Part shown: piece by piece, positions 6,233 through 53,637 of the stretch
How positions within the stretch are numbered: position 1 is the stretch's first letter
How the letters are laid out: each line of letters begins with the position of its first letter
NCBI GenBank assembly: GCA_024277065.1
Contig: JAJRVY010000272.1
Coordinates: 6,767-70,766 of the forward strand
Reading direction: 5' to 3'
Length of the DNA stretch: 64,000 nt
From: Planctomycetota bacterium
GTDB lineage: Bacteria > Planctomycetota > JAJSAM01 > JAJVHW01
Notes under the pieces: generated by a model
Databases searched by the model: none
Told to the model about the DNA's origin: nothing
What the model saw: only the letters and a program-made list of their open reading frames with translations
Made by a program: the position numbers and the translations under genes

Positions 6233-7312
6233 ATGGTACCCTCCCCCGCCGTGAGACTCCGACCTGTCGCCGTGCCGCTCCTCCTCCTCGCCGCCTGCGG
6301 TGCGTCGGGGCCGGCGCCGGTGCAGCGGCCGCCGCAGCCGGGGGACCTGCCGGACGAGACAGAGTTCCTGGCGCAGGTCGATCGCAGCCGGGGCACGCGC
6401 GACTGCTTCGCCGTCATCCGCGACCCGGTGTTCGTGCGCGCCACGGGCCGCCACGGCATCGCGGACGACGAGATCGTCATGGGTGTCGATCTCGGGACCA
6501 CGCAGGTGGCGTATCCGATCCAGCTCCTCAACTTCCACGAGATCGTGGAGCACACGACCCAGGGACTGGATCTGCTGGCGTGCTGGTGACCGCTCTGCCG
6601 GACGGGCGTCGTGCACGTCCGCGAGGTGAACGGCCGCTCGTTGCGTTTCGGGCACCGCGGCTGGCTCTGGAACAACGCGTTCCTGCTCTACGACAAGGAG
6701 ACGGACAGCATCTGGCACCACCTGACGGGCTGGGCGATGTCCGGTCCGCTGCGCGGTGCGTCCCTGCCGCGCTTCCCGACCGTACAGACGACGTTCGCCG
6801 CCTGGCGCGCGGAGTATCCCGCGACCCTCGTGCTCCCCAAGCCCGCGGGTGACGAGCGCCCGCTCGATCGCGACGTCTACGCGGGCCGCAACTCGGGACT
6901 CGCCTTCGGCCTCGGCGTGGACCTGCCGCAGGCGTTCAGGTTGTACCCGTTCGAGGCGCTCGCCGCGGCCGGCGGCGTCGTCACGGAGACCGTGGGCGAG
7001 ATGGCGCTGGTCGTCGCGCTGGACCCGGTCGCGCGCAGCGCGTTCGCCTACGAGAGCCGCACGGACGGCGACGATCTCGACCTGGTGCTCGTCGCGAACG
7101 CGGAACAGGGACCCGTGCTGCGTGAGCGCGACGGCAGACGCGCGTGGCGCCTGCGGAGCGGCAGGCCCGCGCCGGGATCGGGTGCCGGCACGCGTCTGCG
7201 GCCTCTCCTCGCAAGCCCCTGGGAGACCTTCGCCTGGCGCCGCCAACATCCTGCCGGGACCGTCTGGCCGGCGTCCGCGGAGGGCTCCGGTGTCCCCGCC
7301 GAGGGACGCTGA
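6233..7312 (+). CDS. DUF3179-family lipoprotein with an in-frame TGA (6587-6589) at the first Cys of the conserved CPLC motif. Candidate selenoprotein (W-U-P-L-C).
   Basis: Track ORFs 6233..6589 and 6611..7312 are in the same frame and separated by a single TGA. Both halves carry DUF3179 hallmarks (HEIVEHT...LLACW[TGA]PLCRTGVV...LRFGHRGWLWNNAFLLYDKETDSIWHHLTG). Lipobox LLLAAC near the N-terminus. Confidence 0.6.
6599..6621 (+). promoter_or_regulatory. Candidate SECIS-like stem-loop 9 nt downstream of the in-frame UGA.
   Basis: CGGACG / CGUCCG 6-bp stem with an 11-nt loop (GGCGUCGUGCA) that could add 2 further bp. Confidence 0.3.
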
Positions 7313-7443
7313 GAACTGCGCCGCGGGGATGGCGCAAGCCCGCCGCCGATCGGCCGGGCACTTGCTGGAGGGAACGCGGAGCGTTCGAGAGACGTCATGG
7401 ATGATGGTAGGCTGAGAGAGAGTCCCCCAAGGAGGATGTCCCC

Positions 7444-8163
7444 ATGTTCAAGCGACTGGCGGTCCTGACACTCACGGCGCTCGTCTCCGCGACGTTCATC
7501 GCGCCGACCGTGTTCGCCGGCAACGACGCCGAGAAGAACAAGCTGAACCGCGAGAAGGTGCGCGCCAAGTACACAGAGGACAGGGGCGGGTTCGCGTACT
7601 ACGACCTCGTCTACTGGGTGGACGTCGCCAAGCTCGAGGACAGCCGCTGGTCCGTCCAGGCGCTGCGCGAACCGAAGCACGACCGCGGCCTGCAGCTCTA
7701 CGCGAACTGGGTCAACACGGCCAACGCGGAGGGCATGAACATCAAGGTCTTCGGCTACAAGTTCCTCCACGAAGAGCGCGAAGGCAGCATCCGGCGCCCG
7801 TTCTCGTACCCCTTCAACAACCTCGGCGAGTCGGTGCGCTGCTCCGACATGAAGGGCATGCTCGAGGGCTTCTACGAGGACTGGAAGCGCGGCGCGTCCG
7901 ACGTGATCGAGGACCAGTGCGAGAAGCCGAAGAAATCGAAGTTCAAGATCCCCAAGATGCAGGCCGCCGCCGTGGGCACGGACCCCGAGCTGAAACAGCG
8001 CGTGCGCCGTGAGTGGTATGCTTGGAGCAACGGCAAGCAGATGTCCACGTACATCATCGAGATCCGCTACGGCCCAGCGCTCTACAACCGGGAAGGGCTC
8101 GTCGCCAAGGGCGCCGAGTTCGTCAAGAACCTCAAGGAGATCAAGGACAAGGTCAAGTGGTAG
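7444..8163 (+). CDS. Secreted Lys-rich hypothetical protein (239 aa) with a signal peptide.
   Basis: AGGAGG 6 nt before the ATG. Signal peptide MFKRLAVLTLTALVSATFIAPTVFA. Lower local GC but high GC3. Two tandem hairpins follow the stop. Confidence 0.7.
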   Translation: MFKRLAVLTLTALVSATFIAPTVFAGNDAEKNKLNREKVRAKYTEDRGGFAYYDLVYWVDVAKLEDSRWSVQALREPKHDRGLQLYANWVNTANAEGMNIKVFGYKFLHEEREGSIRRPFSYPFNNLGESVRCSDMKGMLEGFYEDWKRGASDVIEDQCEKPKKSKFKIPKMQAAAVGTDPELKQRVRREWYAWSNGKQMSTYIIEIRYGPALYNREGLVAKGAEFVKNLKEIKDKVKW

Positions 8164-8167
8164 GCCG

Positions 8168-8218
8168 CCGGGCGTAGGCGCCCGGTCGAAGACGGCCGGC
8201 TCCCGGACCGCCCGGGAG
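8168..8218 (+). terminator. Two consecutive GC-rich hairpins after the 7444-8163 gene.
   Basis: CCGGGCG-tagg-CGCCCGG at 8168-8185 and CTCCCGG-accgc-CCGGGAG at 8200-8218. No U-tract, as is common at this GC content. Confidence 0.4.
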
Positions 8219-8276
8219 TGGTCCGAGACGGCACTGCACCGCGAACCCTTGCGCACGCGCCGCGGTTGACGCTCCG

Positions 8277-9281
8277 ATGCAGACCGCCAAGAGCGCCGAC
8301 ACCACGCAGGCCGATCGTGTGCGCGGGCCCGATGGTGGCTATCCTCCGCGTCCCGTGGAGACCGTGTCCGTCCTGCAACTCGACAAGTCGTTCGGCGACG
8401 TCCGCGCGCTGCGTGAACTGACCGTCGATTTCCCGGCCGGCGCCGTGGGTCTCCTGGGCCCCAACGGCGCGGGCAAGTCGACGCTCCTCAAGATCCTGCT
8501 GGGGCTCTTGCCGGCGGACGGCGGCTCAGCCTCGGTGCTCGGACGCGACGTGCGGCGCGACCCCCTCGAAGTGCGGCGCGTGGCGGGCTACATGCCCGAG
8601 ATCGATGCCTACGTCCCGGGGCTGACGGGCGCCGAGTCCGTCGTCTTCTGCGGCGTGCTCTGCGGACTGCCGCGGCGCATCGCGCAGCAGCGCGCGCATG
8701 AGATCCTCTACTACGTCGGGCTGGCCGAGTCCCGCTACAGGCGCGTCGAGCAGTACTCGACGGGCATGCGGCAACGACTGCGCCTGGCGCAGGCGCTCGT
8801 CCACGACCCGGGCCTCATCTTCCTCGACGAGCCGACCAACGGACTCGATCCCGACGGCCGCGACGAGGTGCTCGCGCTGATCGAGGATCTGGCCACGAAC
8901 CACGGCAAGAGCATCGTGCTCTGTTCGCACCTGCTGCACGACGTCGAGGCGGTCTGCGAGCACGTCATCGTGCTGCGCGAGGGCGCCATCGCCCTCGAGG
9001 GCTCGGTGGACGAGGTCCGCAAGCTCGAGCGCGGCACCTTCCACGTGCGCATCTCGGGAGACCTCGAGGCATTCCTCGGGGCAGCGCAGCGCGGTGGACT
9101 GAGCGCGGAACGTCACGACGCCGAGATGCTGCGCGTGCGCGTTCCCGACGGCGCCGGCGCGCACGAGATCTTCGGCGCCGCGCGCGCCGCGAACTGCGCC
9201 GTGCGCTCACTCTCGACGGTCGAGCAGTCGCTCGAGGGCGTGTTCATCCGCGCGGTGTGCGACGTGAAGGGCGGCGACTGA
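8277..9281 (+). CDS. ABC transporter ATP-binding protein (ABC-2/NatA-like) with a C-terminal extension.
   Basis: Walker A GPNGAGKST, signature YSTGMRQRL and Walker B LIFLDEP. Confidence 0.85.
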   Translation: MQTAKSADTTQADRVRGPDGGYPPRPVETVSVLQLDKSFGDVRALRELTVDFPAGAVGLLGPNGAGKSTLLKILLGLLPADGGSASVLGRDVRRDPLEVRRVAGYMPEIDAYVPGLTGAESVVFCGVLCGLPRRIAQQRAHEILYYVGLAESRYRRVEQYSTGMRQRLRLAQALVHDPGLIFLDEPTNGLDPDGRDEVLALIEDLATNHGKSIVLCSHLLHDVEAVCEHVIVLREGAIALEGSVDEVRKLERGTFHVRISGDLEAFLGAAQRGGLSAERHDAEMLRVRVPDGAGAHEIFGAARAANCAVRSLSTVEQSLEGVFIRAVCDVKGGD

Positions 9282-10219
9282 TGCCCGTCTTCGAACAGGG
9301 CTATCGGCCGTTCGAAGGCGAGCTCGCGCGGCGCTCCCCCGTCCCGGCCGCCGTCTGGCACAACGTGCGCACGCGGCTGCGCTGGTGGATCTGGGTACTC
9401 ACGGCGGGGCTCCTGATGTATCCGTATGTCGTCTGGGGTGTGGCCGTCTTCCTGTTCACGGCCGGCCAGGCGCTGTTCGGCATCACGCCGCCCGGCGGCA
9501 TGGCGACCGTCCCACGCTTCGCCTACGAATCGGCCGGCGACCCCGACCCGACGAAGTTGCTGGCGATGCTCACTGCGAGTTCACCACGCGGAGCCCTCGC
9601 CCTCTACTGGACGATCCTCGAGCAGGCGTCGCTCGCGGCCATCGTGCTCCCGGCGGTCGCCTGCGGGGGCATCCTGGCCTCGGATCGCGCCACAGGTGCG
9701 ATGCAGATCTACTTCGCGCGCCCGGTCACGCGCTTCCAGTACCTGCTCTCGAAGATCCTCACCGTGTCGTGCTTCACGGCGCTCGTGACCTCCCTGCCCA
9801 CACTGTTCATCTGGGGCGAGACCGTGGCCTTCCACCCGGATGGAGACTTCCTGCTGCGCACGTGGATGGCGCCACTGTCCATCATCGGCGCGGGTCTCTT
9901 CTACGCGCTGTGGTCGTCGTCCATCGTGCTTGCTCTGTCGAGCGTGTTGCGACGCCCGGCACTGGCCTCGATCTGCGCCATCTTCGGCTACTTCCTGCTG
10001 CGCTACATCGGCTTCCTGGTGTCGAGCAGCCTGGACGACAAGACCTGGCGCCTGCTCGATCCGCACTACGCACTGGGCGGCATCGTCGCGCCGCTGTTCG
10101 GTCTCGAGCTCCCGGACTGGCTGGCAACGCCCTGGCTGCCGGTGCCATCGCTCCTCGTGCCGCTCGCCCTGCTGTTCTTCGTGTGGACCCGCGTCCGGGC
10201 CGTCGAGGTGACGACGTGA
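9281..10219 (+). CDS. ABC-2 type transporter permease (6 TM).
   Basis: TGATG stop/start overlap with the upstream ATPase. Multiple hydrophobic helices. Confidence 0.7.
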   Translation: MPVFEQGYRPFEGELARRSPVPAAVWHNVRTRLRWWIWVLTAGLLMYPYVVWGVAVFLFTAGQALFGITPPGGMATVPRFAYESAGDPDPTKLLAMLTASSPRGALALYWTILEQASLAAIVLPAVACGGILASDRATGAMQIYFARPVTRFQYLLSKILTVSCFTALVTSLPTLFIWGETVAFHPDGDFLLRTWMAPLSIIGAGLFYALWSSSIVLALSSVLRRPALASICAIFGYFLLRYIGFLVSSSLDDKTWRLLDPHYALGGIVAPLFGLELPDWLATPWLPVPSLLVPLALLFFVWTRVRAVEVTT

Positions 10220-11184
10220 GCGAGCAGGCGCGCCCACCGGTCATCCACGTCGAACGCCTCACGAGGTCGTACGGCGCGGTCGTGGCGATCAACGACATCT
10301 CCCTCGACGTCGCCGGGGGCGTGATCGGCCTGCTCGGCCCCAACGGCGCGGGCAAGTCCACGCTGCTGAAGACGCTGACGGGGGAGCTGCGGCCGGGCAT
10401 GGGCGACGTCACGGTGCTCGGCATGGCGCCCTTCGCCAACCCGGACCTGTACGCGCGCATCGGGATCTGCCCGGAGCAGGACGCGCTGTTCGAGGACATG
10501 ACGGCGCGCGAATTCATGTCGTTCCTGCTGCGGTTGCGCGGGCTCGAGAGCCGCGTCGCGCGCGACCGCGCGGACGCGTGGATCGAGCGCATGGGCCTCA
10601 CGGACGCGCGCAACCGACGCCTGCGCGGCTTCTCGAAGGGCATGCGCCAGCGCACGAAGCTGTGTACGGCGTTCGCCCACGAGCCGGAACTGCTGTTCCT
10701 CGACGAGCCGCTGACAGGGCTCGACCCGCTCTGGCGCCACCACGTGCAGGAGCTGGTGCGCGAGCGGGCGCGGGCGGGGGCGACCGTGCTGTTCTCGTCG
10801 CACGTCCTGCACGAGGTCGAGCAGGTGACGCACGAGGTCGTGCTGCTGCACCGCGGCCGCGTCGCCGCGCAGGGGGACGCGCGCGAGATCCGCGCGCTGA
10901 TCGACCGCGTGCCGCACCGCGTCGAGGTGCTCGCGACGCGTCCACGACACGTGGCCGTCATGCTCGCCGGCTGGGAGTGCGTCGAGAGCGTCCGCGTGCA
11001 CGAGGCGGGCGTGGACGTCACGACCCCGCGCCCCGACCTCTTCTACGCGTTGCTCACGGAGGCGTGCGCGGACGACGACCTCGGCGTGCAGGGTCTCAGC
11101 AGTCCCGACGACAGCCTGCAGGCACTGTTCGACACGCTCGTGAACGCGCGGCCCGAACGCACGCGGCGGAGGGCCGCGTCATGA
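10216..11184 (+). CDS. ABC transporter ATP-binding protein (second ABC-2 ATPase).
   Basis: GTGA start overlaps the permease stop. Walker A GPNGAGKST, signature FSKGMRQRT and LLFLDEP. Confidence 0.85.
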   Translation: MSEQARPPVIHVERLTRSYGAVVAINDISLDVAGGVIGLLGPNGAGKSTLLKTLTGELRPGMGDVTVLGMAPFANPDLYARIGICPEQDALFEDMTAREFMSFLLRLRGLESRVARDRADAWIERMGLTDARNRRLRGFSKGMRQRTKLCTAFAHEPELLFLDEPLTGLDPLWRHHVQELVRERARAGATVLFSSHVLHEVEQVTHEVVLLHRGRVAAQGDAREIRALIDRVPHRVEVLATRPRHVAVMLAGWECVESVRVHEAGVDVTTPRPDLFYALLTEACADDDLGVQGLSSPDDSLQALFDTLVNARPERTRRRAAS

Positions 11185-12050
11185 GCGCGGGGCACGCGAG
11201 CGGCTCCTCGCAGCCCCCGGAGTCCTCGGGGGCGGTGGGGGCGGCGCCCCCACCGCTGCGCCGGCTCGACGCCGTCGAGAGCGTCTATCAGGTCACTCTG
11301 CTGACGCTGCGGCGCACACTGCGCGGCAAGCGCATGCTCTGGATCGCAGCCCTCCTGGCGTTGCCGTGCATCCTGGCATGGTCGGTCGCGCGCGGTCTCG
11401 ATCCCGAACGCCAGGAGAGGTTCTTCTACGAGACGCTGGTCTTCTACCAGTTCGGGATCGCGGTGCCGTCCGTGGCGCTGCTGATGGCCACGGCGTTCCC
11501 CTGGCCCGAGAGCGACGAGGGTTCGCTGACCTACTGGTTCACGGCGCCGGTGCGGCGCTGGACCGTGCACCTCGGCCGCACGCTGGCCTCTCTCGCCATC
11601 GGCGCCATCGTCCTGCCCGTCGCCGTGCTCGCGCTGGCGCTGCCGCTCGATCCCGGCGACAGCGTCGAGCTCGCGGGGCCCGTGCGCACGGCGGTGACGG
11701 CGACGCTGCTCGCGTTCCCGGCCTACCTCGCGGTGTTCTCCTTGCTGTGCACGTGGCTGCGGCGAGGACTCATCGGCGGCGTGTTCCTGATCCTCGTCGA
11801 GAACTCGCTGTCGCTCGTCACCGGCAACCTCGCGAAACTGACCGTCGTGTACTACGTACGCTCGATCCTGTGGCCGGCCACGTCACTGCTCGGGCGCCGC
11901 GTCCTCGAGAACGCGGCGCGCATCGACGACCCGGCGTCGTCCGCGACCGCCATCACGGTCTTCGTCGCCGTGACGATCGTCGCCCTCGGCATCGCGATGG
12001 TGCTCGTCGAGGTGCTGGAGTACCGCGGCAAGCACGCCCAGCCGGGTTAG
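11181..12050 (+). CDS. ABC-2 type transporter permease (second).
   Basis: ATGA overlap with the upstream ATPase. Hydrophobic multi-TM protein. Confidence 0.65.
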   Translation: MSAGHASGSSQPPESSGAVGAAPPPLRRLDAVESVYQVTLLTLRRTLRGKRMLWIAALLALPCILAWSVARGLDPERQERFFYETLVFYQFGIAVPSVALLMATAFPWPESDEGSLTYWFTAPVRRWTVHLGRTLASLAIGAIVLPVAVLALALPLDPGDSVELAGPVRTAVTATLLAFPAYLAVFSLLCTWLRRGLIGGVFLILVENSLSLVTGNLAKLTVVYYVRSILWPATSLLGRRVLENAARIDDPASSATAITVFVAVTIVALGIAMVLVEVLEYRGKHAQPG

Positions 12051-12117
12051 CCTGCGCGGGTGCGGCGGCCGGCCTCGGAGCCGGGCCGCGGCAGGGACAT
12101 GCCCGGGAGACGCGAAC

Positions 12118-13536
12118 GTGGAGAGCGAACAGAGCCCGCCCCCGATTCCCCTCACGCCCCTGCGCATCGATCGCAGCGTGCGCAGGCGCCGCCGCACGTG
12201 GCTGCGGTGGACGATCGTGCTCGTCCTGCTGCTCGCCGTCGTCGCCGTGATCGCCGGGCCGCTGCGCAGCACGCTCTTCCCGCTGCGCGTCACGACCGCC
12301 GTGGTCACACGCTTGGCGGCGACCCAGGGCGCCGTGCGCACGACCGCCAGCGGCTATGTCCTCGCGCGGCACCGGGCGGCGATCTCCAGCCGGCTCTCGG
12401 GGCGGCTCGAGACGCTGCTCGTCGATGTCGGGGACCACGTCGAGAAGGACCAGCTCCTGGGGCGCCTGGGCCAGGCGGATCTGGTCGCGGCCGTGGCGGA
12501 AGCGCAGGCGGCCCTCGCGCAGGCGCGCCTCGAGGTGCCGGTGCTCGAGCGCCGCATCGACGTCGCCGTGGCGGCGGTGGCGACCACGAAGGGACGACTC
12601 GGGCAGATCGAGGCCGCGGTCGGTACGGCGCGCGACCGCCTCACCGAGGCCGAGCGCGTCGTGGCACTCGAGGAGCGTCTCGTGGAGACGGGCAGCTCGT
12701 CGCAGGACGCGGTGGACGCGAGCCGCGCGGACCGCGACATCCGGGCCACCGAGCTACGCGTGGCGACGGCAGCCGTGGGGGCCGCCCGCGCCGAGGTCGC
12801 CGAACGGCAGCAGGACGTCGGTGTCCTGCGCGCGCAGATCGAGTCGGCCCGCGCCGGCGTGCAGGCCGCCGAAGCGGCGCTGACGCGCGCCGAGGCGCTG
12901 CGCGCGGACGCCGACATCAGGGCCCCGTTCGCCGGCGTCGTGCTCCGCAAGGAAGCCGAGATCGGCGAGATGGTCTCCCCTGTCAACGCCGCGGGCAGCA
13001 CGACACGCGGCGCCATCGTGACCATCGCCGACTTCGCCTCGCTGGAGATGGAAGTGGACGTCATCGAGCGCGACATCGGCGAGGTCGCCGAGGGCATGCC
13101 CTGTCGCATCGTCCTCGACGCGCGTGACGGCCCGTACGCCGGACACGTGCGCCAGGTCGTGCCCACCGCCGATCGCACACGCGGCACGGTTCAGGTGAAG
13201 GTCGCCTTCGATGCGCTGGACGATCGCGTGCTCCCGGAGATGAGCGGGCGCGTCGAGTTCCTCGCGATGGGCGCGGAGGATGTCGTGCTCGGGGCGGACC
13301 GCGTTCTTGTCGATGAGCGCGCGCTGGTCGCAGTACCGGACTCCTGGCAGGTGTGGGTGGTGCGCGACGGAAGCGTGCACCGCACGCACGTGGAACTCGT
13401 GAGCGGCGAGGCACCGAGCGGCAAGCGCGAGGTCGCAAGCGGGCTGCGCGGCGGCGAGGAAGTCGTGCTCTCCCCGTCCACGGACCTCACCGACGGCGCG
13501 GCCGTCACGGCGCAACCCGCGGGAGACGCACCCTGA
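12118..13536 (+). CDS. HlyD/MacA-family periplasmic adaptor (membrane fusion protein).
   Basis: N-terminal TM anchor, long coiled-coil region, and a lipoyl/beta-barrel C-terminal half (..IRAPFAGVV..). Confidence 0.8.
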   Translation: MESEQSPPPIPLTPLRIDRSVRRRRRTWLRWTIVLVLLLAVVAVIAGPLRSTLFPLRVTTAVVTRLAATQGAVRTTASGYVLARHRAAISSRLSGRLETLLVDVGDHVEKDQLLGRLGQADLVAAVAEAQAALAQARLEVPVLERRIDVAVAAVATTKGRLGQIEAAVGTARDRLTEAERVVALEERLVETGSSSQDAVDASRADRDIRATELRVATAAVGAARAEVAERQQDVGVLRAQIESARAGVQAAEAALTRAEALRADADIRAPFAGVVLRKEAEIGEMVSPVNAAGSTTRGAIVTIADFASLEMEVDVIERDIGEVAEGMPCRIVLDARDGPYAGHVRQVVPTADRTRGTVQVKVAFDALDDRVLPEMSGRVEFLAMGAEDVVLGADRVLVDERALVAVPDSWQVWVVRDGSVHRTHVELVSGEAPSGKREVASGLRGGEEVVLSPSTDLTDGAAVTAQPAGDAP

Positions 13537-14222
13537 TGCTGATCGAGGCCCGGGGCGTCGTGAAGACGTACACGCGTGGCGATCAGGAGCTCTGCGTGCT
13601 CGACGACCTGGATCTGGACGTCGGCGACGGCGAATGGGTGGCGCTGATGGGCCCCAGCTGCAGCGGCAAGACGACGCTGCTCAACCTGATCGGCGGACTC
13701 GATGTTCCGGACGCCGGCTCCATCCGCGCGGGCGGGGACGAGATCGTGGGCCGCAGCGCGGCGGACCTGGCGGCGTGGCGCGCGCGGCACGTCGGGTTCA
13801 TCTTCCAACTCTACAACCTGCTGCCGGTCCTGACCGCGTGGCAGAACGTCGAGTTGCCGCTCCTGCTCGCGCCGCTCACGCGCCGCGAGCGGCGCGAGCA
13901 CGTCGATGTCGCGCTCTCCGTGGTCGGGCTCGCCGACCGCACCGAGCACTTCCCGTCGCAGCTCTCGGGCGGACAGCAGCAGCGCGTGGCGATCGCGCGC
14001 GCCATCGCCACGGACCCCAGCTTCCTCTTGGCCGACGAGCCGACGGGCGACCTCGACGCGAAGAGCGCCGAGGAGATCCTGGGCCTGCTCGGCCGCCTCC
14101 ACACGGACTTCGGCAAGGCCATCGTGATGGTCACGCACGACCCCCACGCCGCGCGCTACGCCGACCGGCTGGTGCACCTCGACAAGGGACGCATCGCGAC
14201 ATCCGAGGCGCTGCGCTCGTGA
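13536..14222 (+). CDS. MacB/LolD-type ABC ATPase.
   Basis: TGATG overlap with the adaptor gene. [23 protein letters not shown] and LLADEPTG motifs. Confidence 0.85.
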
Positions 14223-15382
14223 CGCCCTGGCGGCTGCTTTTAGCACATCTGCGACGGGCCTGGTTCCGCGTGGCGTTGACGGCGGGCGGCGTGGCGCTCG
14301 CCGTCTTCCTGCTCGCGTCACTGCGAACGTTCGTGACGAGCCTCGACGAGACGGTGAAGGCATCCGGCAGCAACCGCGTGATCGTGTCGAGCGCCGTGTC
14401 GCTGTTCGTGTTCCTACCGAGCAGGATCGAGCCCGAGCTGCGCTCGCTGCCGGGTGTCCGGGAGGTGACGCACTGGACGTGGTTCGGCGGCGTGTACGTG
14501 GATCCGAAGAACATGTTCGGCCGCTTCGCGACGGATCCCAACACGTTGCGCAACGTCTACGGCGACCGCTCCCCGAACGACGAGGAGATCGTCCTCACGG
14601 CCGACGAGTGGGACGCCTTCGCGGCCGATCGCGCCGGCTGCGTCGTCGGCGACGGGATCGCCGAGCAGTACGGCTTCCGCGTCGGGGACCAGATCGAACT
14701 GACGGGAACGCTCTTCGAGGGCGACTGGACGTTCAACGTCCGCGGCATCTACCACTCGGGCAGCGCGCAGGTGGACAACGCAACGATGTTCTTCCAGTGG
14801 GAGTACCTCGACGAGAAGTCCGGGCGACGCGGCGAGGTGAGCACGTACACCGTCGATCTGGAGCCCGGCGCGGACCTCGCCGCGATCAGCCGCGCGATCG
14901 ACGCGCGCTTCGAGTCCTCGGACCATCGCACGCGCACGCTGACCGAGGCGGCCTTCAACCAGATGTTCGTCTCGATGTGGGGCAACGTGCCCGTACTGCT
15001 CTCGATGATCGGCGGCGCGGTGCTGTTCGCGGCGTTCATGATCGCGCTGAACACGATGCTCCTGCACGGGCAGGAACGCCGGCTGGAGATCGGCGTGCTC
15101 GAGGCCCTGGGCTTCCCCAGCAGGGTCGTCGCCACGCTGTTCGTCGCCGAAGGCGTCATCGTCTGCGGTCTCGGCGGCCTGGTCGGCGTGGCGGGCGCGC
15201 ACCTGCTCTTCAACACGTTCGGCGTGCCCGCTCTGGAGCGCTTCTTCCCGGCGTTCCGCATCCTGCCCGAGACCGAACTGCTGGCGCTGCTCGTGGCCCT
15301 CGCGGTGGGCGCGGTCAGCGGGGCGATCCCCGCCTGGGTGGCGGTGCGCACGACCGTCGTGGACGCTCTGGCGAAACGCTGA
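14219..15382 (+). CDS. FtsX-like ABC permease (MacB-type, large periplasmic loop).
   Basis: GTGA overlap with the ATPase gene. N-terminal TM, large extracytoplasmic domain and three C-terminal TM helices. Confidence 0.8.
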   Translation: MTPWRLLLAHLRRAWFRVALTAGGVALAVFLLASLRTFVTSLDETVKASGSNRVIVSSAVSLFVFLPSRIEPELRSLPGVREVTHWTWFGGVYVDPKNMFGRFATDPNTLRNVYGDRSPNDEEIVLTADEWDAFAADRAGCVVGDGIAEQYGFRVGDQIELTGTLFEGDWTFNVRGIYHSGSAQVDNATMFFQWEYLDEKSGRRGEVSTYTVDLEPGADLAAISRAIDARFESSDHRTRTLTEAAFNQMFVSMWGNVPVLLSMIGGAVLFAAFMIALNTMLLHGQERRLEIGVLEALGFPSRVVATLFVAEGVIVCGLGGLVGVAGAHLLFNTFGVPALERFFPAFRILPETELLALLVALAVGAVSGAIPAWVAVRTTVVDALAKR

Positions 15383-16548
15383 TGCCGGTCCCCCTCCGCT
15401 ACAACCTGCGCAGTCTGGTCGTGAGGCGAGCCGGCACCCTTCTGAGCATCGCCTCGATCGGGCTGTCCGTCGCCGTGCTGGTCCTCGTGCTCGCGCTGGC
15501 CCGGGGCTTCGAACTGTCACTGGTCGGAACCGGCACCGACGGCAATCTCATCGTGCTGCGCAAGAGCGCCACGAGCGAGGGCGAGAGCGGCCTGCAGCGC
15601 TGGCAGTTCCGGGCGCTCTCGGCGTTCCCGGGCATCGCCGTCGGCGAGACGGGCGCGCCGCTGGCCGCCGCAGAGGTCTACGCGGCGCTCAACCTCGACA
15701 AGTCCGGCGGCGGCAGCGCGAACTTCCCGCTGCGCGGCGTCATGCTCAGCTCGTTTCGCATCCGCGACACCGCGCGCGTGGTCGCCGGCCGGCGCTTCAC
15801 GCCCGGCACGCGCGAGGTCGTCGTCGGCAAGGCGCTGCTGGGGCGCATCGACGGCTGCCGCCTGGGCGGCGCGCTCCAGCTCCAAGGGCAGGACTGGCCG
15901 GTCGTGGGCGTGATCGACTCGGGCGGCAGCGCCTACGACTCGGAGATCTGGTGCGACGTCGAGGTGTTCATGCAGGAGCTCGATCGACCGGTCTACGGCA
16001 TCGCGATCCTGCGCGTCGATGCGCAGATCGAGGGCGGCGCAGGCGCGCTGGCGACGTCCATCGAGGACGACCCGCGCTTCGACGCGAAGGTCATGACGGA
16101 GCCCGCCTACTTCGCCGCGCAGGCCGGCACGCTCGGAGAGGTGCTGCTCTTCACGGGGTACTTCATCGCCGGGATCATGGCCGTGGGCGCCGCGTTCGGA
16201 ACGGCGGTGACGCTGCTCGCTTCGCTCGCGCGGCGCACGCACGAGGTCGGCACGCTGCTGGCCGTCGGCTTCCGGCCACGCGAGATCCTCGCCGGTTTCC
16301 TCGTGGAGTCCCTCGTCCTCGGACTCGCCGGCGGCGTCGTCGGCGTGCTGATCGCGCTGCCGGTCAACGGTGTCGCCACGGGCACGATGAACTGGGACAC
16401 CTTCACCGAACAGGCGTTCGCATTCCGGATCACGCCCGGCGTCGTGATGCGGGCGGTCACGTTCAGCACGATCGTCGGCGTCCTCAGCGGCGTCGTCCCG
16501 GCGTGGAAGGCCGCCGGCCTCCCGCCCAGCGAAGCGCTGCGGCGCTGA
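15382..16548 (+). CDS. FtsX-like ABC permease (second copy).
   Basis: TGATG overlap. Same architecture as the previous gene. Confidence 0.8.
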   Translation: MPVPLRYNLRSLVVRRAGTLLSIASIGLSVAVLVLVLALARGFELSLVGTGTDGNLIVLRKSATSEGESGLQRWQFRALSAFPGIAVGETGAPLAAAEVYAALNLDKSGGGSANFPLRGVMLSSFRIRDTARVVAGRRFTPGTREVVVGKALLGRIDGCRLGGALQLQGQDWPVVGVIDSGGSAYDSEIWCDVEVFMQELDRPVYGIAILRVDAQIEGGAGALATSIEDDPRFDAKVMTEPAYFAAQAGTLGEVLLFTGYFIAGIMAVGAAFGTAVTLLASLARRTHEVGTLLAVGFRPREILAGFLVESLVLGLAGGVVGVLIALPVNGVATGTMNWDTFTEQAFAFRITPGVVMRAVTFSTIVGVLSGVVPAWKAAGLPPSEALRR

Positions 16549-16757
16549 ACCGCGTGTCCAGCGGAATGGACACGCCCGGCGCGCCGATGTCGCGCGATGC
16601 AGTCTCGCGCCGCCGAAATCCCGGAACGGGGGATAAGGATCCGCCTCGCCCGGAGCCGATCCCGGAAACACCCGGCGTCAGCGGCCCCGGCGAGCGAGCG
16701 ACGCTCGGCACGGCCCGCTGATTGCAGGGCAGTTGACTGCAACCCCCGGAGGTTCCG

Positions 16758-16910
16758 ATGTCATCGGTCGTGCGAAGTTGGCTGAGAGCGTGGTGCACCG
16801 GCTGTGAGAAGAAACAGGTCTTCGTACTCCAGCCCGGATGGGTGCTCGTCTGCTCGGAGTGCGGCCACGAGAAGCGCCTCGACAAGAGCGGCCTCATCCC
16901 ACAGCAGTAG
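16758..16910 (+). CDS. Small zinc-ribbon protein (50 aa, CxxC...CxxC). Not in the ORF track because it is under 60 aa.
   Basis: GGAGG 6 nt upstream of the ATG. Sequence MSSVVRSWLRAWCTGCEKKQVFVLQPGWVLVCSECGHEKRLDKSGLIPQQ. About 80 % G/C at third positions. Confidence 0.45.
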   Translation: MSSVVRSWLRAWCTGCEKKQVFVLQPGWVLVCSECGHEKRLDKSGLIPQQ

Positions 16911-17214
16911 CCGCTGGCTCGCGCGGGCAACGGCCGCAACGAACGGGCTCGACGGCGGCCACCCGGTGCTGCGCGGCCGACGCCACTCGTGAGTGCGCTC
17001 TCCCGGGCCACGCCGCGAGGGGCTTCACGTCCTGGTCCACCGCCGCGCAGCGGCCGCTGGTCCACCGTCCGAGGCGGCTCGGCGCGCCTCACACGGCCCC
17101 CGCGAGACCGTGGCCGCGGCCGTGGCCGGCGGCTTCTTGACAGGAAGCCACTCATGGAGTAGGGCCATAGGGGCCGTCGCGCAAGAAGGACGGTCCAGGC
17201 AACGGAGGCGAACG

Positions 17215-20172
17215 ATGGTCTCTCTCCGCTCCATCCCGGTTCTGCTGCCGGCCCTCTTCATCTTGGCCCTCGCGGCGGGGCCGGCCCGGGCCGAGGCGCC
17301 TGCCGAACCATCGCTCGCATTCTCCGAAACACCACCGCTCTCCCGACTGAAGGTCGGAACCCTCACGTCGTCGGGCAGGAGCACGAAGAAGTTCGCCGGC
17401 ACCGGAACGCTCACGTTCCTCGGCGACGTCGAGATCGATCTCGACGTCGTCGCCAGGAACAAGGTGAACAAGAAGCACCCGGCCCGTACGAGGGCCACTT
17501 ACATCCTCAAGTCTCCTCGAGGTGCGCTGCCCCGGGTGAGGGTGAAGTTCGTGATGCGGGGCGGCGCACTCTCCTCCCTCTCCGTGTCGCTCAAGGCCAA
17601 GGTGAAGAACGCGGCCGCCATCGCATCCACGGAACCCGGCGTCTATGAGATTCGGGGCATCCCGCCCCTCCGGGGAATCGACGTCCGCGGCGCCGCTCCG
17701 GTACTCGACCATGGCGAGCACCTCGGGCTGTCGGTGAAGAGCCAGACGGACAGGAAGGGCCGCACCACTCACTCGATCACTTCACGGTCGAAGAGTCCGA
17801 AGGTGAAGGGGAAGCTGACGATCGAAGGCGCGCCAGAGACGGTCGTGAGCGTCAACTTGAAGTACACCCTGTTCAAGAAGGGCCTGGACGGCGTCAGTCT
17901 CCGGACCGGCGCCTTCGCGATCGCGCCGCTCTCCGGCGTCGTCGCGGACGCACCCGGCGTCGTCGAGGTCAGGAACAGCCTGAGCAGTGCACCTGTCGGG
18001 TCCGGCGGCACGTTCACGATCAACGCCTTCGCCGAGGGCCGGCAGCTCGCCATGGGCGCGACATCCGACGGCACGCTCCTTCTCGGCTGGCTGGGAGAGG
18101 GGCGTACGACGCTGAGCGCCCGCAGCACGGCCGAGGTCATGCTCTTCGTGGCCGGTTCGATGTTCACGGTCCCTCTCGACCGCGTGGACACGGTGATCGA
18201 CGAGATCGCTGCATCGCAGCAGGCGGCAGACCTCGCCGTCGAGGTCGAGGCGGCGCTCTGGTCGGGCGCCTCGACGTTCGCGGAGTTGGTCGCAGACGTC
18301 GCGCCGCAGCTCTCCGATCTCACCGACCAACTCATCGCCGACGCCGGTGGGAAGAGCCTCCTGATCGACCCGATCGCGGGCAGCAGCGGCATCGACGTAA
18401 GCGCCGAGGGCTTCCAGAACGTCGTGATCACGAACTACTACCGCCGCCGCGCGCACGCTTTCATCCAGCGGCTCGGTCACACGCCCGAAGACGGGATCGG
18501 CTTCATCCAGGACGAGGCGGACCTCACGGATGTCGTGATCTCTCCCTCTCCGGGGATCAGTTCGGTGATCGGACTCCTCATCAGTCTCGGCAGCGGCGCC
18601 TACACGCCCGTCGAGAAGGGACCGTTCACGCTGCCGCTGACCCCCGACCGCGCGAGCTCGACCCTATACAAGGTCACGGTGGTGGGACTCGGCTTCTCGC
18701 AGGGAGACTTCGGCCAGCTGAATCAGACGCAGCGTACGTGGCACGCGCGCGTCGCCATCGAGACGATCGTACTCGATATCATCGGCCCCTGGCTGGCTGC
18801 GGCGGCGCTCCCGAGCGGCCCCCAGCAGGGGATGCAGCAGGTGGGTATTCGAATCGCCGGAGGCGGCGGGTTCGACAGGTTCACGGCCGAACTGCTCGTC
18901 GCCGTGCCTCTCGCCGCCGAGCAGGCCGCGGGCGGTGACTTCACCGGCGCCATCGGGGGGATACTCACCGCCTTGAACACCGACGACACGCTCACGACCC
19001 TGTTCACCGTCGCGCTCGCCGGGGCGGTGGAGAACGTGCTCGGCAAGGGAGCGGCCGAGGGAGTCACGGGTTTCATGGCCAAGTTCGCGCTCGAGGTACT
19101 GGCGCCTCTGGACATCAGCCTGAAGATCACCGACACCGTGGTCCAAGGTCTCCATATCGCGAAATCCAACAACGCGGACGTCTGGAACGTGGAGGTCACC
19201 AGCGCCAAGGTCTCGCTCGTACCCGAGTTCGAGATCGTCCGGAACACCAGCGGGCGGGTGGATCAGCCGGTCTTCGAGGCGATCGTCCAGGACGGCGAGG
19301 AACTGAACCTCACGTACAAGTGGTCGTGCGGCGACAAGGGCCGGATCGGCGACACCAAGGGCCACTTCGGCACGGAGTTCGAGTCCAGCGACGGGCAGGT
19401 CGTCTTCACTCCCGACGTCGGCGCCGAGGGAACCACTCACGTCACGGTCGAGGTGGAAGAGATCGTCGGCAGCGGTCGGAGACCGATCGGCAAGGCCAGA
19501 GCCAAGGTCGAGATCATCCGCCGCACCGTCCTCATCATCGAGCGGAAGGCATCGCTTGCCCCGAATGAGAGCAGGGACTTCGAAGTGCGCGTCGATCCAC
19601 CCGTCACCGACGGCACAGTCTTCTATCGCTGGAGCGGAACCGAGGACTTCGGACAGGCGGACGCCGCATTCGGCGAGGACACGAGCGACACGATCGTGAA
19701 CTACGTCGCCGGCGACGCAGAGGGGACGGACTCGCTTCACTGCGAGGCATTCCTCGTTCGCAACGGTCAGACCGAGTCGCTCGGCAAGGCAGACGGCGAG
19801 ATTCGCGTCGAGTTGCGCAAGAGCATCATCCTGGGCACCTACGTGTACGACGTGGTGGCCGTCACGGAAAACACCACATGTGGCGCCGCTCGGTGCCGGG
19901 TCGCCATCCCCGATGGCGCGATTCGTCTCGACCTGCGAGCCTACGGCCACACTGACCCCTCCTTCCACGGAAGCGAGATCAACAAGTCCGCCGTCCGGCT
20001 GGGCGACGGACGCTGGCGCTTCGGTTCGACGACCAACTCGCCGGACGACGCGTTCTGGAACCTGTCCGGGCTCTGTAGTAGTAGCGCGGAGAGCGTGACC
20101 GATGCGAAAGCCGTCTATGACGGCCGATTCGCCGCTTTCATCTACGAGATCGAGGTCACCTACGAGGAATGA
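17215..20172 (+). CDS. Large secreted protein (about 985 aa) of unknown function.
   Basis: GGAGG before ATG 17215. Signal peptide MVSLRSIPVLLPALFILALAAGPARA. No recognisable domain, few Cys, Lys-rich N-terminal module, about 60 % GC. The ORF-track start at 16993 adds R-rich junk. Confidence 0.75.
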   Translation: MVSLRSIPVLLPALFILALAAGPARAEAPAEPSLAFSETPPLSRLKVGTLTSSGRSTKKFAGTGTLTFLGDVEIDLDVVARNKVNKKHPARTRATYILKSPRGALPRVRVKFVMRGGALSSLSVSLKAKVKNAAAIASTEPGVYEIRGIPPLRGIDVRGAAPVLDHGEHLGLSVKSQTDRKGRTTHSITSRSKSPKVKGKLTIEGAPETVVSVNLKYTLFKKGLDGVSLRTGAFAIAPLSGVVADAPGVVEVRNSLSSAPVGSGGTFTINAFAEGRQLAMGATSDGTLLLGWLGEGRTTLSARSTAEVMLFVAGSMFTVPLDRVDTVIDEIAASQQAADLAVEVEAALWSGASTFAELVADVAPQLSDLTDQLIADAGGKSLLIDPIAGSSGIDVSAEGFQNVVITNYYRRRAHAFIQRLGHTPEDGIGFIQDEADLTDVVISPSPGISSVIGLLISLGSGAYTPVEKGPFTLPLTPDRASSTLYKVTVVGLGFSQGDFGQLNQTQRTWHARVAIETIVLDIIGPWLAAAALPSGPQQGMQQVGIRIAGGGGFDRFTAELLVAVPLAAEQAAGGDFTGAIGGILTALNTDDTLTTLFTVALAGAVENVLGKGAAEGVTGFMAKFALEVLAPLDISLKITDTVVQGLHIAKSNNADVWNVEVTSAKVSLVPEFEIVRNTSGRVDQPVFEAIVQDGEELNLTYKWSCGDKGRIGDTKGHFGTEFESSDGQVVFTPDVGAEGTTHVTVEVEEIVGSGRRPIGKARAKVEIIRRTVLIIERKASLAPNESRDFEVRVDPPVTDGTVFYRWSGTEDFGQADAAFGEDTSDTIVNYVAGDAEGTDSLHCEAFLVRNGQTESLGKADGEIRVELRKSIILGTYVYDVVAVTENTTCGAARCRVAIPDGAIRLDLRAYGHTDPSFHGSEINKSAVRLGDGRWRFGSTTNSPDDAFWNLSGLCSSSAESVTDAKAVYDGRFAAFIYEIEVTYEE

Positions 20173-20497
20173 GAACGTGAGCAGCCCTGACATCGACCAC
20201 CTCCCGGTCCCTCTCCGACGTGGCCCCGGACAGCGCTGACGGACTTCGTCAATCTGATCGAAGCGGTGACTCGCCGTGCTGCGCGCCAAGCGGTCATGCG
20301 CTCGCAAGGGCGCCCCCACCCGTCCCCACCCGCCCCCGCACGCGGGCGGAGCGAGCCGTGGCGCGTAGCGAGGGTGTGAGCCGGACCTCGCATGGCCGGT
20401 CCCCGAGCGGGGACGCGCCACCGACAAAGAGATCCCCGGTGCTGCGCGCCGAGCGCTCACGCACTCGCGAGACGGGTCCACCGCGCAGCGCCGGGGA

Positions 20498-21871
20498 TCA
20501 CCACTCGGTGAGCACCCAGGTCTTCCACTCCTTCTCCATGTCCTCGATCAGGGGGTAGTCGTACGTCGCGCGCCACGCGTCGTCGTCCGAGCGTCCGCCG
20601 CGGACGAGGTTGACGAGCAGTTCGGCGAACTTCTCACGGTCCTTCGTGACGAGCCAGGTGACGAGTCCGTACGCGCCCCCCTCCTCGGCCGGGCCGTAGT
20701 CGCCGATCTGCATGCGCAGGAACTTGCGCATGGCGGGGAACGTGCCGTCCTGGATCGCCTCGATGCACCGCTCCTTGCGTTCGTCGATGTCCTGCTTGCT
20801 GCCCTTCTTGCGCTTCTTCTTCCTACGCGCGTCGGACGTGCCGCCGGCGCCCTTGGCTGTCTTGCCACCGACGCAACTCGCGAGGTGCTCCCCCATCACC
20901 TCCATCTCGACCCACTCGCCGAGGCCCTCCTCGAGCCACGTCGGCGGCTTGCGGCTACCGCCCCAGATCTTCCAGACGGCGAGGTGGCCGACCATGTGTA
21001 CGCACGAGTACCACATGCCCTCGACGCCGCGTTTCGGGAAGCGGAGTTGCGTCGGGATCGGCCGGTCGCGCCAGACACCGCCGCCGGTCGGCAGCCGGGC
21101 GAACTTCATCCACGCCTCGCTCATGCCCCACTGCTTCGACAGCTTCGAGAGCACGGGCAGATACGACTCGTGGTTCGGCAGCGTGATGGTCGGCGAACGG
21201 TTGCGCCAGAGGCCCTCGCGACCGCTGAGATCGGCGATCAGCGCGTAGGCCTCCTCCAACGTCTCGGCGCGCTGCGCGAGATCCTGGTCCTCGGTACCGT
21301 CCACGAGCAGGAAGTGCTCGGTCTGGTAGACATCGACGGTGGTGCCGAGCTTCTGCGACCACTCGCGGCGCAGCTTCGTGCGCTCGGCCTCGGCCCGCAG
21401 GCGCGGCAGATCGACATTGCGCACCCACTTGCCCTCGAAGCGGACGTCGCCGTTCGCCTCACGCGCCGCCTCGTGGTCGGGGTCGAGCCGGAGGACCTTC
21501 GCCAGGAGTTTGCGGGCCTCCTTCGTGAGATCCTTGTCGCCGCCGGCGTGCTCGCGCAGGAAAGCGCAGAGTTCCCACAGGGCGGCGGCGGACTTGGGAG
21601 CGGCGTTCGCGGCTGCCGTGAGCCGTTCGTGGACCTCGACGGGCGACTCGCCGGACCGCCGCTCGGTGACCTTGGCCACCTCGAGTTTCTCGACGCCCGT
21701 GAGCGTCTTCACCCAGACGTACCCGCCGTCCTCGCGCAGGACCTTGCCGTCGATGGACGTTCCGTCGCCGAGGACGAACACGTCCGCGAACGAGAACGCC
21801 ACGAGGGCGCACACGAGGGCGGCGGCGAGGCCGGGGATGCGGCCGCGTGGGCCGGCGTCGTTGCTGGTCAT
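20498..21871 (-). CDS. Secreted hypothetical protein (457 aa) with a signal peptide and a KKKRKK basic patch.
   Basis: GGAG 7 nt before the ATG. Sequence MTSNDAGPRGRIPGLAAALVCALVAFSFA.... Contains an HMVGH element. Convergent with the large secreted gene. Confidence 0.7.
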   Translation of the reverse strand: MTSNDAGPRGRIPGLAAALVCALVAFSFADVFVLGDGTSIDGKVLREDGGYVWVKTLTGVEKLEVAKVTERRSGESPVEVHERLTAAANAAPKSAAALWELCAFLREHAGGDKDLTKEARKLLAKVLRLDPDHEAAREANGDVRFEGKWVRNVDLPRLRAEAERTKLRREWSQKLGTTVDVYQTEHFLLVDGTEDQDLAQRAETLEEAYALIADLSGREGLWRNRSPTITLPNHESYLPVLSKLSKQWGMSEAWMKFARLPTGGGVWRDRPIPTQLRFPKRGVEGMWYSCVHMVGHLAVWKIWGGSRKPPTWLEEGLGEWVEMEVMGEHLASCVGGKTAKGAGGTSDARRKKKRKKGSKQDIDERKERCIEAIQDGTFPAMRKFLRMQIGDYGPAEEGGAYGLVTWLVTKDREKFAELLVNLVRGGRSDDDAWRATYDYPLIEDMEKEWKTWVLTEW

Positions 21872-22066
21872 GGTCTACTCCTGTGCATCGCGGCGCTGCC
21901 ACCAGGATAGACGCGCGGCGCGCGCCGGGATTCCGCGATTCGAGGGCCGCCGGCGGCTTCTCGTGCCGCCGCCCGTGAGCGGGGGCGCGCCGTGGAAAGC
22001 GACGTGGGCGCCCGCGCTCGCGCGCGGACGCCCTTCGTTGTCGTGCCGGAGCAGCGACGACCACTG

Positions 22067-23065
22067 CTACATGTCGTCGTCTTCGCCGTCGGCATCGTCG
22101 GCGTCGTCATCGTCGCCGGACGCCTTCAACGCCTCGAGGCGCTTTTCCTGCGCGTCGAAGAAGCCCTTGGCCCGGGCGTTGTCACCGAACTTCTCGCGGA
22201 GTTTGCCCAGAGCGCGCTCGAAGAGATCGGCGTCGCCCTCGCGCTCGGCGTGACCGAGCAAGGCGATGAAGAAACTCTGGAATGCCGCTTCGGAGGTCGG
22301 CTCGCGGCCGGCCGCCCACATCTCGGCGAACTTCTTGCCGGCCGCCTCGGACAGCGCCTCGTACTCCTCGCGAGACTTCGGGCTGCCCATGGCATCCGCG
22401 ATCTCGAGGTCGGTCAGGAGACCGTCGATCTCCTTCTTCTGCGCGTCGGAGAGGCCCTCGAGCTTGGACACGCGGTCCTTGGCATCGTCGAGCTTCGCGT
22501 TGCCCATCTCGATGTCGTGCTTCAGCAGGAAGACGTGATCGTCCAGCGACTTGTCTTCCTTGGCACGGATCGCCATGAGCTTGGCGCCCGAATCCATCAT
22601 CGCGCGGAAGCCGGCGACGTCGCGGTTGCCGGACAGTTTGGCGATCACATCGCCGTTCTCGTCGAGGGCGGCCAGCGACGGAAAGCCGCCGAAGCCCTTC
22701 TCGGAGAGCAGGTTCTCGTACTTACGGCCCTCGAGCCGCGTCGTGACGTGTGCAAACATGACGAAGTCCTTGGCGAATGCCGCGAACTCTTCGGTGGAGA
22801 ACGGACCGTCCTCCAATGCTTTGCAGGGGGGTCAGAACGAGTACGAGCGCGTGAAGTAGGTGAAGATCGGCTTCCCCAACTCCTTCGAGCGCTGCCGGGC
22901 GACGTCGTAGTCGTCCGTGAAACCGTTGTCGGTGAACCAGGCCTCGGCCACCTTCGCTTCGTACTTCGCCTGGAGATCCGCCTGCGCGGAATCCTGAGCG
23001 AAACCGACCGCCGCTGCCCCGGCCACGAGCAGGCCGGAAAGGGCGATCCCGATCGATCGAATCAT
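22067..23065 (-). CDS. Periplasmic thioredoxin-fold protein (Thioredoxin_7-like) with an in-frame TGA at 22832-22834. Candidate selenoprotein (S-F-U-P-P-C-K).
   Basis: Track ORFs 22832..23065 and 22067..22816 are in the same frame with one TGA between them. The read-through gives ...ELGKPIFTYFTRSYSF[TGA]PPCKALEDGPFSTEEFAAFAKDFVMFAHV..., i.e. the thioredoxin active-site context with UxxC. Signal peptide MIRSIGIALSGLLVAGAAAVGFA; GGAGG RBS. Confidence 0.6.
22795..22816 (-). promoter_or_regulatory. Candidate SECIS-like stem-loop 17 nt downstream of the UGA (minus strand).
   Basis: GGAGGAC-GGUCC-GUUCUCC: 7-bp stem including one G-U pair, with a 5-nt loop. Confidence 0.3.
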
Positions 23066-53400: not shown

Positions 53401-53637
53401 ACGTCGCGGCGCCCCGCCGCGTCGCCGGCCGCCCGGCGCGCCACGAACGAGCTGTCGGATCGCCAGCGCCGCGTGCTCCAGATCCTCGCCGAACAGGAGT
53501 GGCTGACGAACACCGAGTACTGCGAGCTCGTCGGGATCTCGACACGCACCGGTCTGCGCGATCTCAAGGAGCTCATCGAACGTGGGCTCGTCGCCATGGA
53601 AGGCAAGCGCCGCGGCGCACGCTACCGCCTGCGCTGA
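50488..53637 (+). pseudogene. Sigma54-dependent transcriptional activator (TM sensor, GAF, degenerate GGDEF, AAA+ and HTH domains) interrupted by an in-frame TAA at 53299-53301.
   Basis: [23 protein letters not shown] and WPGNVR[TAA]LRNALEQAVVL. The stop replaces the Glu of the RELxN motif. The downstream same-frame ORF 53329..53637 carries the HTH (LTNTEYCELVGISTRTGLRDL). Confidence 0.7.

Follow-up and report, generated by a model that had tools for sequence, protein, structure and literature searches.

Periplasmic selenoproteins include FDH-N (FdnG) and the [NiFeSe] hydrogenase. Selenocysteine (Sec, U) forms have also been catalogued for DsbA-like and DsbG-like proteins, members of the TlpA family, thiol:disulfide interchange proteins, substrate-binding proteins and one TonB-dependent receptor (PMC13188914). 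DUF3179 is also listed as a UxxC/T selenoprotein family (PMC9312934, PMC13188914), and both reviews, where they treat the family, credit Zhang & Gladyshev 2007 (PMC1976440) for it. Here, we analysed a 64,000-nucleotide stretch of Planctomycetota DNA (assembly GCA_024277065.1, contig JAJRVY010000272.1, positions 6,767 to 70,766; hereafter the window, ~71% G+C) containing two genes with an in-frame TGA in a UxxC motif, one for a DUF3179 lipoprotein (gene 1) and one for a secreted thioredoxin-like protein (gene 2). An initial annotation had proposed that both are exported selenoproteins, that a periplasmic pair beside an export-heavy region would be unusual because most bacterial selenoproteins are cytoplasmic, and that the two may belong to a dedicated system for seleno-redox chemistry or oxidative folding in the periplasm. 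Given the exported kinds already catalogued (PMC13188914), the premise that exported selenoproteins are unusual was overstated. We conclude that these are very probably two independent, genuine selenoprotein genes with exported products, and that their arrangement is a lineage-local gene order and not an operon or module.

Gene 1 occupies 6233..7312 on the plus strand. Its reading frame runs from an ATG at 6233 to a TGA at 7310-7312 with a single internal TGA at 6587-6589, giving 359 codons including Sec119, and the internal codon is the first position of a U-P-L-C motif (context LLACW-U-PLCRTG). With U read as C, as was done for Pfam matching of both genes, the read-through translation matched DUF3179 (PF11376) over residues 57-340 (E 1.6e-48, 166 bits versus a cut-off of 27), and this match spans the TGA. 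We compared gene 1 with orthologues in seven Planctomycetota genomes, for a set of eight loci consisting of the window, a Planctomycetota metagenome contig (L001), and L005-L010, of which L005, L006, L007, L009 and L010 are Planctomycetota metagenome-assembled genomes from GTDB. The Sec column is TGA in the window, L001, L005, L006, L007, L009 and L010, and TGT (cysteine) in L008. Full-length proteins P0002-P0008 and P0021 read CWCPLC and likewise have cysteine at this column, and the U-P-L-C of gene 1 aligns with the CPLC of distant DUF3179 members, in which that motif alone is conserved. Among the orthologues, protein identity is 64-80% upstream of the TGA versus 52-65% downstream.

Gene 2 occupies 22067..23065 on the minus strand and encodes a secreted protein with a Thioredoxin_7 domain, a helical domain and an acidic tail. 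The reading frame extends from an ATG at 23065 to a TAG at 22067-22069 (332 codons including Sec78), and its single internal TGA (22832..22834, read 22834-22832) begins a U-P-P-C motif in the context TRSYSF-U-PPCKAL. Pfam Thioredoxin_7 (PF13899) matched residues 50-134 with 29.8 bits versus a cut-off of 27, again across the TGA. The Sec column is TGA in seven distinct loci: the window, L002, L003, L004, L011 (identical to L012), L013 and L014. Two non-Sec comparators were available as DNA, namely a cysteine form with TGC (L015/L016, protein P0056, motif CGPC) and a form with GTC, a valine codon (L017, protein P0054). Identity is 55-77% upstream of the TGA versus 54-67% downstream, and G+C at third codon positions is 0.87-0.90 on either side of the TGA in both genes alike. 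The Pfam matches across the TGA, the even third-position composition and the orthologue columns together confirm the call of two UxxC genes with an in-frame TGA.

Sec codons in bacteria are read with the help of a hairpin, the bacterial Sec insertion sequence (bSECIS), for which published rules give an apical loop of 3-9 nt with G in the first or second position, an upper stem of 4-16 bp, a UGA-to-loop spacing of 16-37 nt, and a minimum free energy (MFE) of -7.5 kcal/mol or lower (PMC13188914). A hairpin past each TGA in the window satisfies all of these rules. The gene 1 hairpin (6603..6621, plus strand; CGGGCGU-CGUGC-ACGUCCG) has a 7 bp stem and a CGUGC loop that starts 20 nt past the UGA, with an MFE of -8.7 kcal/mol alone and -10.0 in context. 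The gene 2 hairpin (22795..22815, minus strand; UGGAGGACG-GUC-CGUUCUCCA) has a 9 bp stem and a GUC loop that starts 25 nt past the UGA, with an MFE of -11.4 alone and -12.1 in context. In relatives, the DUF3179 loop is GUC on an 8-bp stem, and the loop of the thioredoxin-like gene is (A)GUG(U) or CGUGU. A G-U apical loop type is therefore common to both genes, as expected if one SelB reads both. Rfam searches were negative, both over the window at the gathering threshold and in the surroundings of each TGA.

Hairpins of this kind are common by chance in such DNA, and the weight therefore rests on comparison with other genomes. Over the seven Sec forms of DUF3179, 100% of the stem cells are paired, compared with 25-63% when the 3' partner is slid by 1-3 columns; for the seven Sec forms of the thioredoxin-like gene the figures are 93.7% and 40-70%. 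The DUF3179 hairpin has an MFE of -9.8 to -14.8 kcal/mol in Sec forms versus -5.0 in the Cys form, and the thioredoxin-like hairpin has -12.1 to -14.2 in Sec forms versus -4.9 in the Cys form and -3.6 in the Val form. We also found paired substitutions. In L005 the DUF3179 hairpin has exchanged one C-G pair for A-U, a compensatory change in which GGC becomes GGA and its partner GUC becomes UCC. In the thioredoxin-like hairpin, GA/UU becomes AG/UU and CG[GUC]CG becomes C[AGUGU]G with the helix kept, and it is kept while the encoded peptide goes from E-D/S-G-P-F-S to E-S-S/R-V-L-S.

The TGAs could instead be true stops, in which case each locus would be a pseudogene, an assembly error, or a gene split into two separately translated open reading frames (ORFs). 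Gene callers do split both genes in every database record, and the close homologues of each gene retrieved in protein searches are mostly ORFs starting just past the motif, with a minority at full length. In addition, another gene in the window has an in-frame TAA that resembles a nonsense mutation or an assembly error. A stop, however, would cut the active-site motif of each protein in two, and the downstream ORFs lack a conserved start codon, the called starts varying among homologues. The conserved hairpin is confined to the TGA forms. Moreover, seven independent assemblies per gene have TGA at the column of the catalytic Cys, with both flanks conserved as protein, which is not expected of pseudogenes or assembly errors. 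We consider the stop reading extremely improbable. Because the Pfam match crosses the TGA, the column is conserved, Cys homologues exist and the hairpin is found in Sec forms only, we conclude from this comparative evidence that both in-frame TGAs are almost certainly real Sec codons. TGA is also the usual stop here, ending 21 of 26 confident window genes, and thus the code is standard, without global recoding.

Other junctions between same-frame ORFs in the window were examined as Sec sites (ispF/cysS, 37783/39268, 27526/28057 and 48007/50488) and were rejected, as these are merely adjacent genes. The gene with the in-frame TAA encodes a sigma-54-dependent activator (50488-53637, plus strand; Sigma54_activat, E 1.8e-66). 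Its TAA at 53299-53301 replaces the Glu of GNVRELxN (PWPGNVR*LRNALEQ), the AAA_lid_14 profile and a helix-turn-helix domain resume afterwards, and the codon appears to be a nonsense mutation of GAA to TAA or an error of assembly.

The initial annotation had assigned export signals to both candidates, and these held up when judged by pattern and sequence inspection, with the layout kept in orthologues. Gene 1 begins with MVPSPAVRLRPVAVPLLLLAAC, a signal peptide (6233..6298, plus strand) with a hydrophobic core (Kyte-Doolittle value 2.46) and a lipobox L-A-A-C at residues 19-22 that fits the pattern [LVI][ASTVI][GAS]C, in which Cys22 is the candidate lipidation site. The lipobox Cys is kept in the DUF3179 orthologues (LAAC, VAAC, VVAC or LGGC). 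The gene 2 signal peptide (22997..23065, minus strand) is of the type used by the general secretion (Sec) translocon and reads MIRSIGIALSGLLVAGAAAVGFA up to the predicted cleavage point, with QD following; its n-h-c layout is shared with four orthologues. We propose that, with the ribosome at the UGA, SelB carrying Sec-tRNA(Sec) would bind the hairpin and insert Sec, and that the finished polypeptides would be exported post-translationally through the translocon. The gene 1 product would then be lipid-anchored via its lipobox Cys, the gene 2 signal peptide would be cleaved, and Sec would serve as the attacking nucleophile of each U-x-x-C redox motif.

The presence of two exported UxxC proteins raises the idea that they make up a dedicated seleno-redox relay of the periplasm, with the thioredoxin-like selenoprotein keeping the DUF3179 U-x-x-C, and perhaps neighbouring secreted proteins, reduced or correctly folded. 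In favour of such a relay, both proteins are exported with a UxxC motif and their genes are ~15 kb apart on one contig in the window and in its closest relative; a DUF3179 protein from another lineage, P0024, is fused to a TlpA-like WCAPC thioredoxin domain. The two genes are, however, on opposite strands with eight transporter genes between them, and thus are not an operon. These eight genes (8277..16548, plus strand) encode two ABC-2 ATPase/permease pairs, an HlyD-like adaptor, a MacB-type ATPase and two FtsX permeases, as determined by Pfam and by synteny with L001 and L005-L010. The interval had been described as secreted proteins of unknown function, but it consists mostly of these ABC-2 and MacAB-type transporter genes.

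We assessed synteny in the fetched loci by local tblastn and profile hidden Markov models (HMMs). One relative, L009, spans the whole interval between the genes, and the other genomes were viewed within 10 kb of the match. The expectation that the two genes are conserved together in related genomes largely failed, as they share a contig only in the window and the closest relative (L001/L002). L009 carries the DUF3179 cluster and a gene for a 457-aa secreted protein that in the window is downstream of gene 2. In L009 the 457-aa gene is followed by cysS, with no member of the thioredoxin family by profile HMM and no DUF2254 gene between. The thioredoxin gene comes after metH and a gene for an ArsR-methyltransferase in L011 and L014, and after a pseudouridine synthase gene with PIG-L nearby in L013; none of these three loci contains DUF3179. 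Distant DUF3179 genes gave no further support, in that the neighbourhoods of P0026 and P0027 contain no redox partners. Two more observations run against the relay: the fused domain of P0024 is of the TlpA/Redoxin type and not Thioredoxin_7, and the Lys-rich protein encoded next to DUF3179 has no conserved Cys pair. With linkage lost in L009, L011, L013 and L014, the proposal of a dedicated periplasmic system is not supported, and we consider the relay quite improbable. Because linkage is broken in relatives and the genes are on opposite strands, their position on either side of the interval reflects the local gene order of this lineage.

Several points weigh against the reading of two independent Sec genes. 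The covariation is thin, with one or two pairs showing double changes, and with seven sequences per family 12-69 of 500 shuffles reach the observed covariation score. A hairpin that meets the bSECIS rules follows 9% of codons in window genes at 71% GC, and single-sequence fold z-scores for the 64-100 nt past each TGA are not significant, being no better than shuffled sequence. Each stem also partly codes conserved residues, and protein constraint thus adds to its conservation. Loss of linkage was seen directly in a single genome that spans the whole interval (L009), and the biochemical roles of both proteins, considered below, are suggested by fold and context only. Finally, searches with ARAGORN, Rfam and Pfam found no selA, selB, selC, selD or tRNA-Sec in the window or the fetched loci.

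The last point bears on the earlier statement that the two genes imply an active Sec-insertion system. ARAGORN found no tRNA in the window, and Pfam annotation of the rest of the window gave no selenium-related genes. A 95-nt "tRNA-Gly(ccc)" that ARAGORN called in L007 (795-889) is in GC-rich, coding-like sequence without an Rfam tRNA match; it is probably a false positive and was rejected as a tRNA-Sec. The statement stands as an implication of two bona fide Sec-gene candidates, which point to a working selA/selB/selC/selD system elsewhere in the organism; the window itself shows no such machinery. Taken together, we retain the reading of two genuine, independent selenoprotein genes with exported products.

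What might each protein do? For gene 2, we examined an AlphaFold2 model of the Cys homologue P0056 (predicted local distance difference test, pLDDT, 90), which shows a thioredoxin fold followed by eight helices. A strand at 64-70, C75-G-P-C78 and a helix at 76-86 reproduce the beta-1 / CxxC / alpha-1 geometry, and P129, at the cis-Pro position, is invariant in alignments of the thioredoxin-like family. Foldseek matched the first domain to ERp19, AGR2, DsbH and DsbD-gamma (E 1e-4 to 1e-3, template-modelling (TM) score to target 0.53-0.62), and the two-domain layout to YbbN/CnoX over ~290 columns of the full length. The model thus supports assignment of gene 2 as a thioredoxin-fold oxidoreductase of the DsbD-gamma/DsbH/ERp19 (Thioredoxin_7) type. 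Its Sec would be the N-terminal nucleophile of the active-site motif, where helix alpha-1 begins. From fold and context, the protein may act as a periplasmic selenol/thiol-disulfide reductase or isomerase, and the C-terminal helical domain probably holds or recruits a substrate or partner, as the TPR domain does in YbbN/CnoX. The C-terminus is a poly-Asp/Glu tail (SGDDDDADDADGEDDDM, 22067-22120, minus strand) that varies in length and is present in most orthologues.

Assignments to named families were also considered for gene 2. None of the curated NCBIfam selenoprotein models matches the thioredoxin-like protein. Identity as DsbH was rejected (NF043050 equivalog, 28.4 bits versus a cut-off of 190), as was identity as the TsoB rhodanese/DsbD fusion (NF045694, 23.1 bits versus a cut-off of 805), where the C-terminal thioredoxin part alone matches. 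The score for PF13098, thiol:disulfide interchange protein, was 19.8 versus a cut-off of 27.

An exhaustive profile search with the thioredoxin-like family returned 1027 clusters (50% identity) at E 1e-3 or better. Among the best 150 clusters, 130 are N-truncated calls that begin at most 8 residues from the profile start, and the N-truncated members of this set (P0042 and P0060-P0208) that were checked in DNA had TGA each time. One further truncated member has a 73-aa ORF, a stop and an in-frame ORF, the same layout as gene 2. Full-length members number 19, with Cys at the Sec column in 12 and another residue in seven. The family members that carry names are Planctomycetota. A metagenome scan gave two loci only. 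A scan of GTDB with this family gave 70 pattern matches and no true relative because its peptide patterns were too strict, so this result is not evidence of absence. The prevalence of N-truncated calls suggests that Sec forms dominate the family. It is possible, if on the unlikely side, that this is a large, Planctomycetota-centred and predominantly Sec family that is missing from curated catalogues and that could in some lineages act in the periplasm as redox partner to lipoproteins with UxxC, DUF3179 among them. If that were true, gene callers would be splitting the family systematically, and it would rank among the most Sec-biased thioredoxin-fold families.

For gene 1, a PDB sequence search found no solved DUF3179 relative. 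An AlphaFold2 model of the Cys orthologue P0002 (pLDDT 91) is all-beta, and its sole resemblance in the PDB is a weak one to Rieske ferredoxins and NirD (E ~1e-2, probability 1.0, TM 0.6, ~100 residues). This match raises the alternative that the DUF3179 U-x-x-C is a metal-binding site, for Cu, Hg or similar, that exchanges metal with the ABC-2 (NosY-like) and MacB-type transporters. The equivalent loops of the Rieske and NirD proteins bind a metal cluster, the DUF3179 cluster is conserved with ABC2_membrane_2-type permeases, and many catalogued UxxC selenoproteins handle metal, including MerT, CopZ-like proteins, cation ATPases and YHS proteins (PMC13188914). Distant DUF3179 members, however, keep only the two motif residues, and the nearby His is not conserved. 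The catalogued UxxT variants are easier to reconcile with a single redox nucleophile than with a chelate, and the structural match covers only ~100 residues.

The DUF3179 fusion introduced above, P0024, is a partial protein from Candidatus Acetothermia in which the TlpA/Redoxin-like WCAPC thioredoxin domain is N-terminal to DUF3179 (FCPLC). The fusion offers a Rosetta-stone hint, the single one that ties DUF3179 functionally to thioredoxin-fold proteins, that DUF3179 may work with a thioredoxin-fold reductant. It also points to thiol-disulfide chemistry over metal binding, which we regard as unlikely for this motif. We lean slightly towards the DUF3179 U-x-x-C being a redox-active nucleophile at the membrane surface. 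Judging by fold and context, gene 1 may be a membrane-anchored redox-active module that works with the adjacent exporters.

Gene 1 has a fixed setting. All eight loci, the Cys form L008 included, have DUF3179 followed by the Lys-rich protein and then by the ABC/MacB block, a context of which we did not find a description in the literature. The Lys-rich protein (g04; 7444..8163, plus strand) is a secreted protein of 239 aa without a Pfam match that adjoins DUF3179 in every one of these loci. Its orthologues share no conserved Cys pair, and it is therefore not an obvious disulfide substrate. On the other side, a divergently transcribed gene (5009..6226, minus strand) encodes a secreted 405-aa protein with tblastn matches upstream of DUF3179 in L001, L005, L006, L007 and L010. 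It belongs to no Pfam family, and the name "TPR protein" that it had been given finds no Pfam TPR match.

The genes nearer to gene 2 are less constant. What had been described as large secreted proteins at 17215-21871 resolves into two genes on opposite strands. The first (17215..20172, plus strand) encodes a 985-aa secreted protein without a Pfam match, with the FtsX genes on one side and the 457-aa gene on the other. By tblastn it has no counterpart at the same position in L002, L007 or L009, and we take it from these comparisons to be a lineage-specific insertion outside any conserved unit. The second (20498..21871, minus strand) encodes the 457-aa secreted protein, which has a weak C-terminal Peptidase_MA_2 match, and it is beside the thioredoxin gene only in the window, L002 and L003. 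A 50-aa zinc-ribbon-like ORF (16758-16910, plus strand; CTGC...CSEC) is conserved next to the 457-aa gene in L002 and L009.

These results suggest that an uncultured Planctomycetota lineage uses selenocysteine and puts it in exported proteins. Standard gene calling halves both genes in every public record we examined, and the thioredoxin-like family merits a curated selenoprotein model because most of its entries appear truncated, without the active site. The fixed association of DUF3179 with ABC/MacB transporters is a first clue to its function. Gene linkage does not support the idea of a dedicated seleno-redox pathway, which should be taken further only with evidence of co-occurrence. We conclude that the outcome is a solid annotation correction, together with a lead on a large mis-called family, and not a new system.

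How do the two genes compare with described systems? Like the listed DUF3179 UxxC/T family, gene 1 has Sec first in U-P-L-C, CPLC in Cys homologues and a bSECIS hairpin close downstream. It differs in being a Planctomycetota lipoprotein that has one more Cys, two residues before the Sec (C-W-U-P-L-C), and nothing essential differs; DUF3179-Sec is already known as a family, and gene 1 adds nothing new at that level. In selenoprotein operons and modules such as grdA-grdB, SAO and Tso, co-localisation is conserved, whereas the two genes described here do not stay together.

Gene 2 resembles DsbD gamma, Chlamydia DsbH, ERp19/TXNDC12 and AGR2 in its thioredoxin fold, the motif at the start of alpha-1, the cis-Pro loop and a non-cytoplasmic location. 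It differs from them in having Sec for the first Cys and an added C-terminal helical domain of ~190 residues with an acidic tail, and, compared with DsbD, in lacking the membrane domain. With YbbN/CnoX it shares the two-part layout of a thioredoxin domain and a TPR-like helical domain, but superposition gives a root-mean-square deviation of ~20 Angstrom at 13-15% identity. CnoX, a cytoplasmic protein, carries the non-canonical motif SQHC, whereas gene 2 encodes a secreted protein with U-P-P-C. The catalogued thioredoxin-fold UxxC selenoproteins (Trx, PF13098, DsbA-like, DsbG-like, TlpA, SaoT and the TsoB C-terminal domain) are proteins of the same kind as gene 2, with export predicted for several of them; what sets the family of gene 2 apart is its helical C-terminal domain. 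We conclude that the thioredoxin-like protein adds a new member, and possibly an uncatalogued family, to the thioredoxin-fold UxxC selenoproteins, a well-known class.

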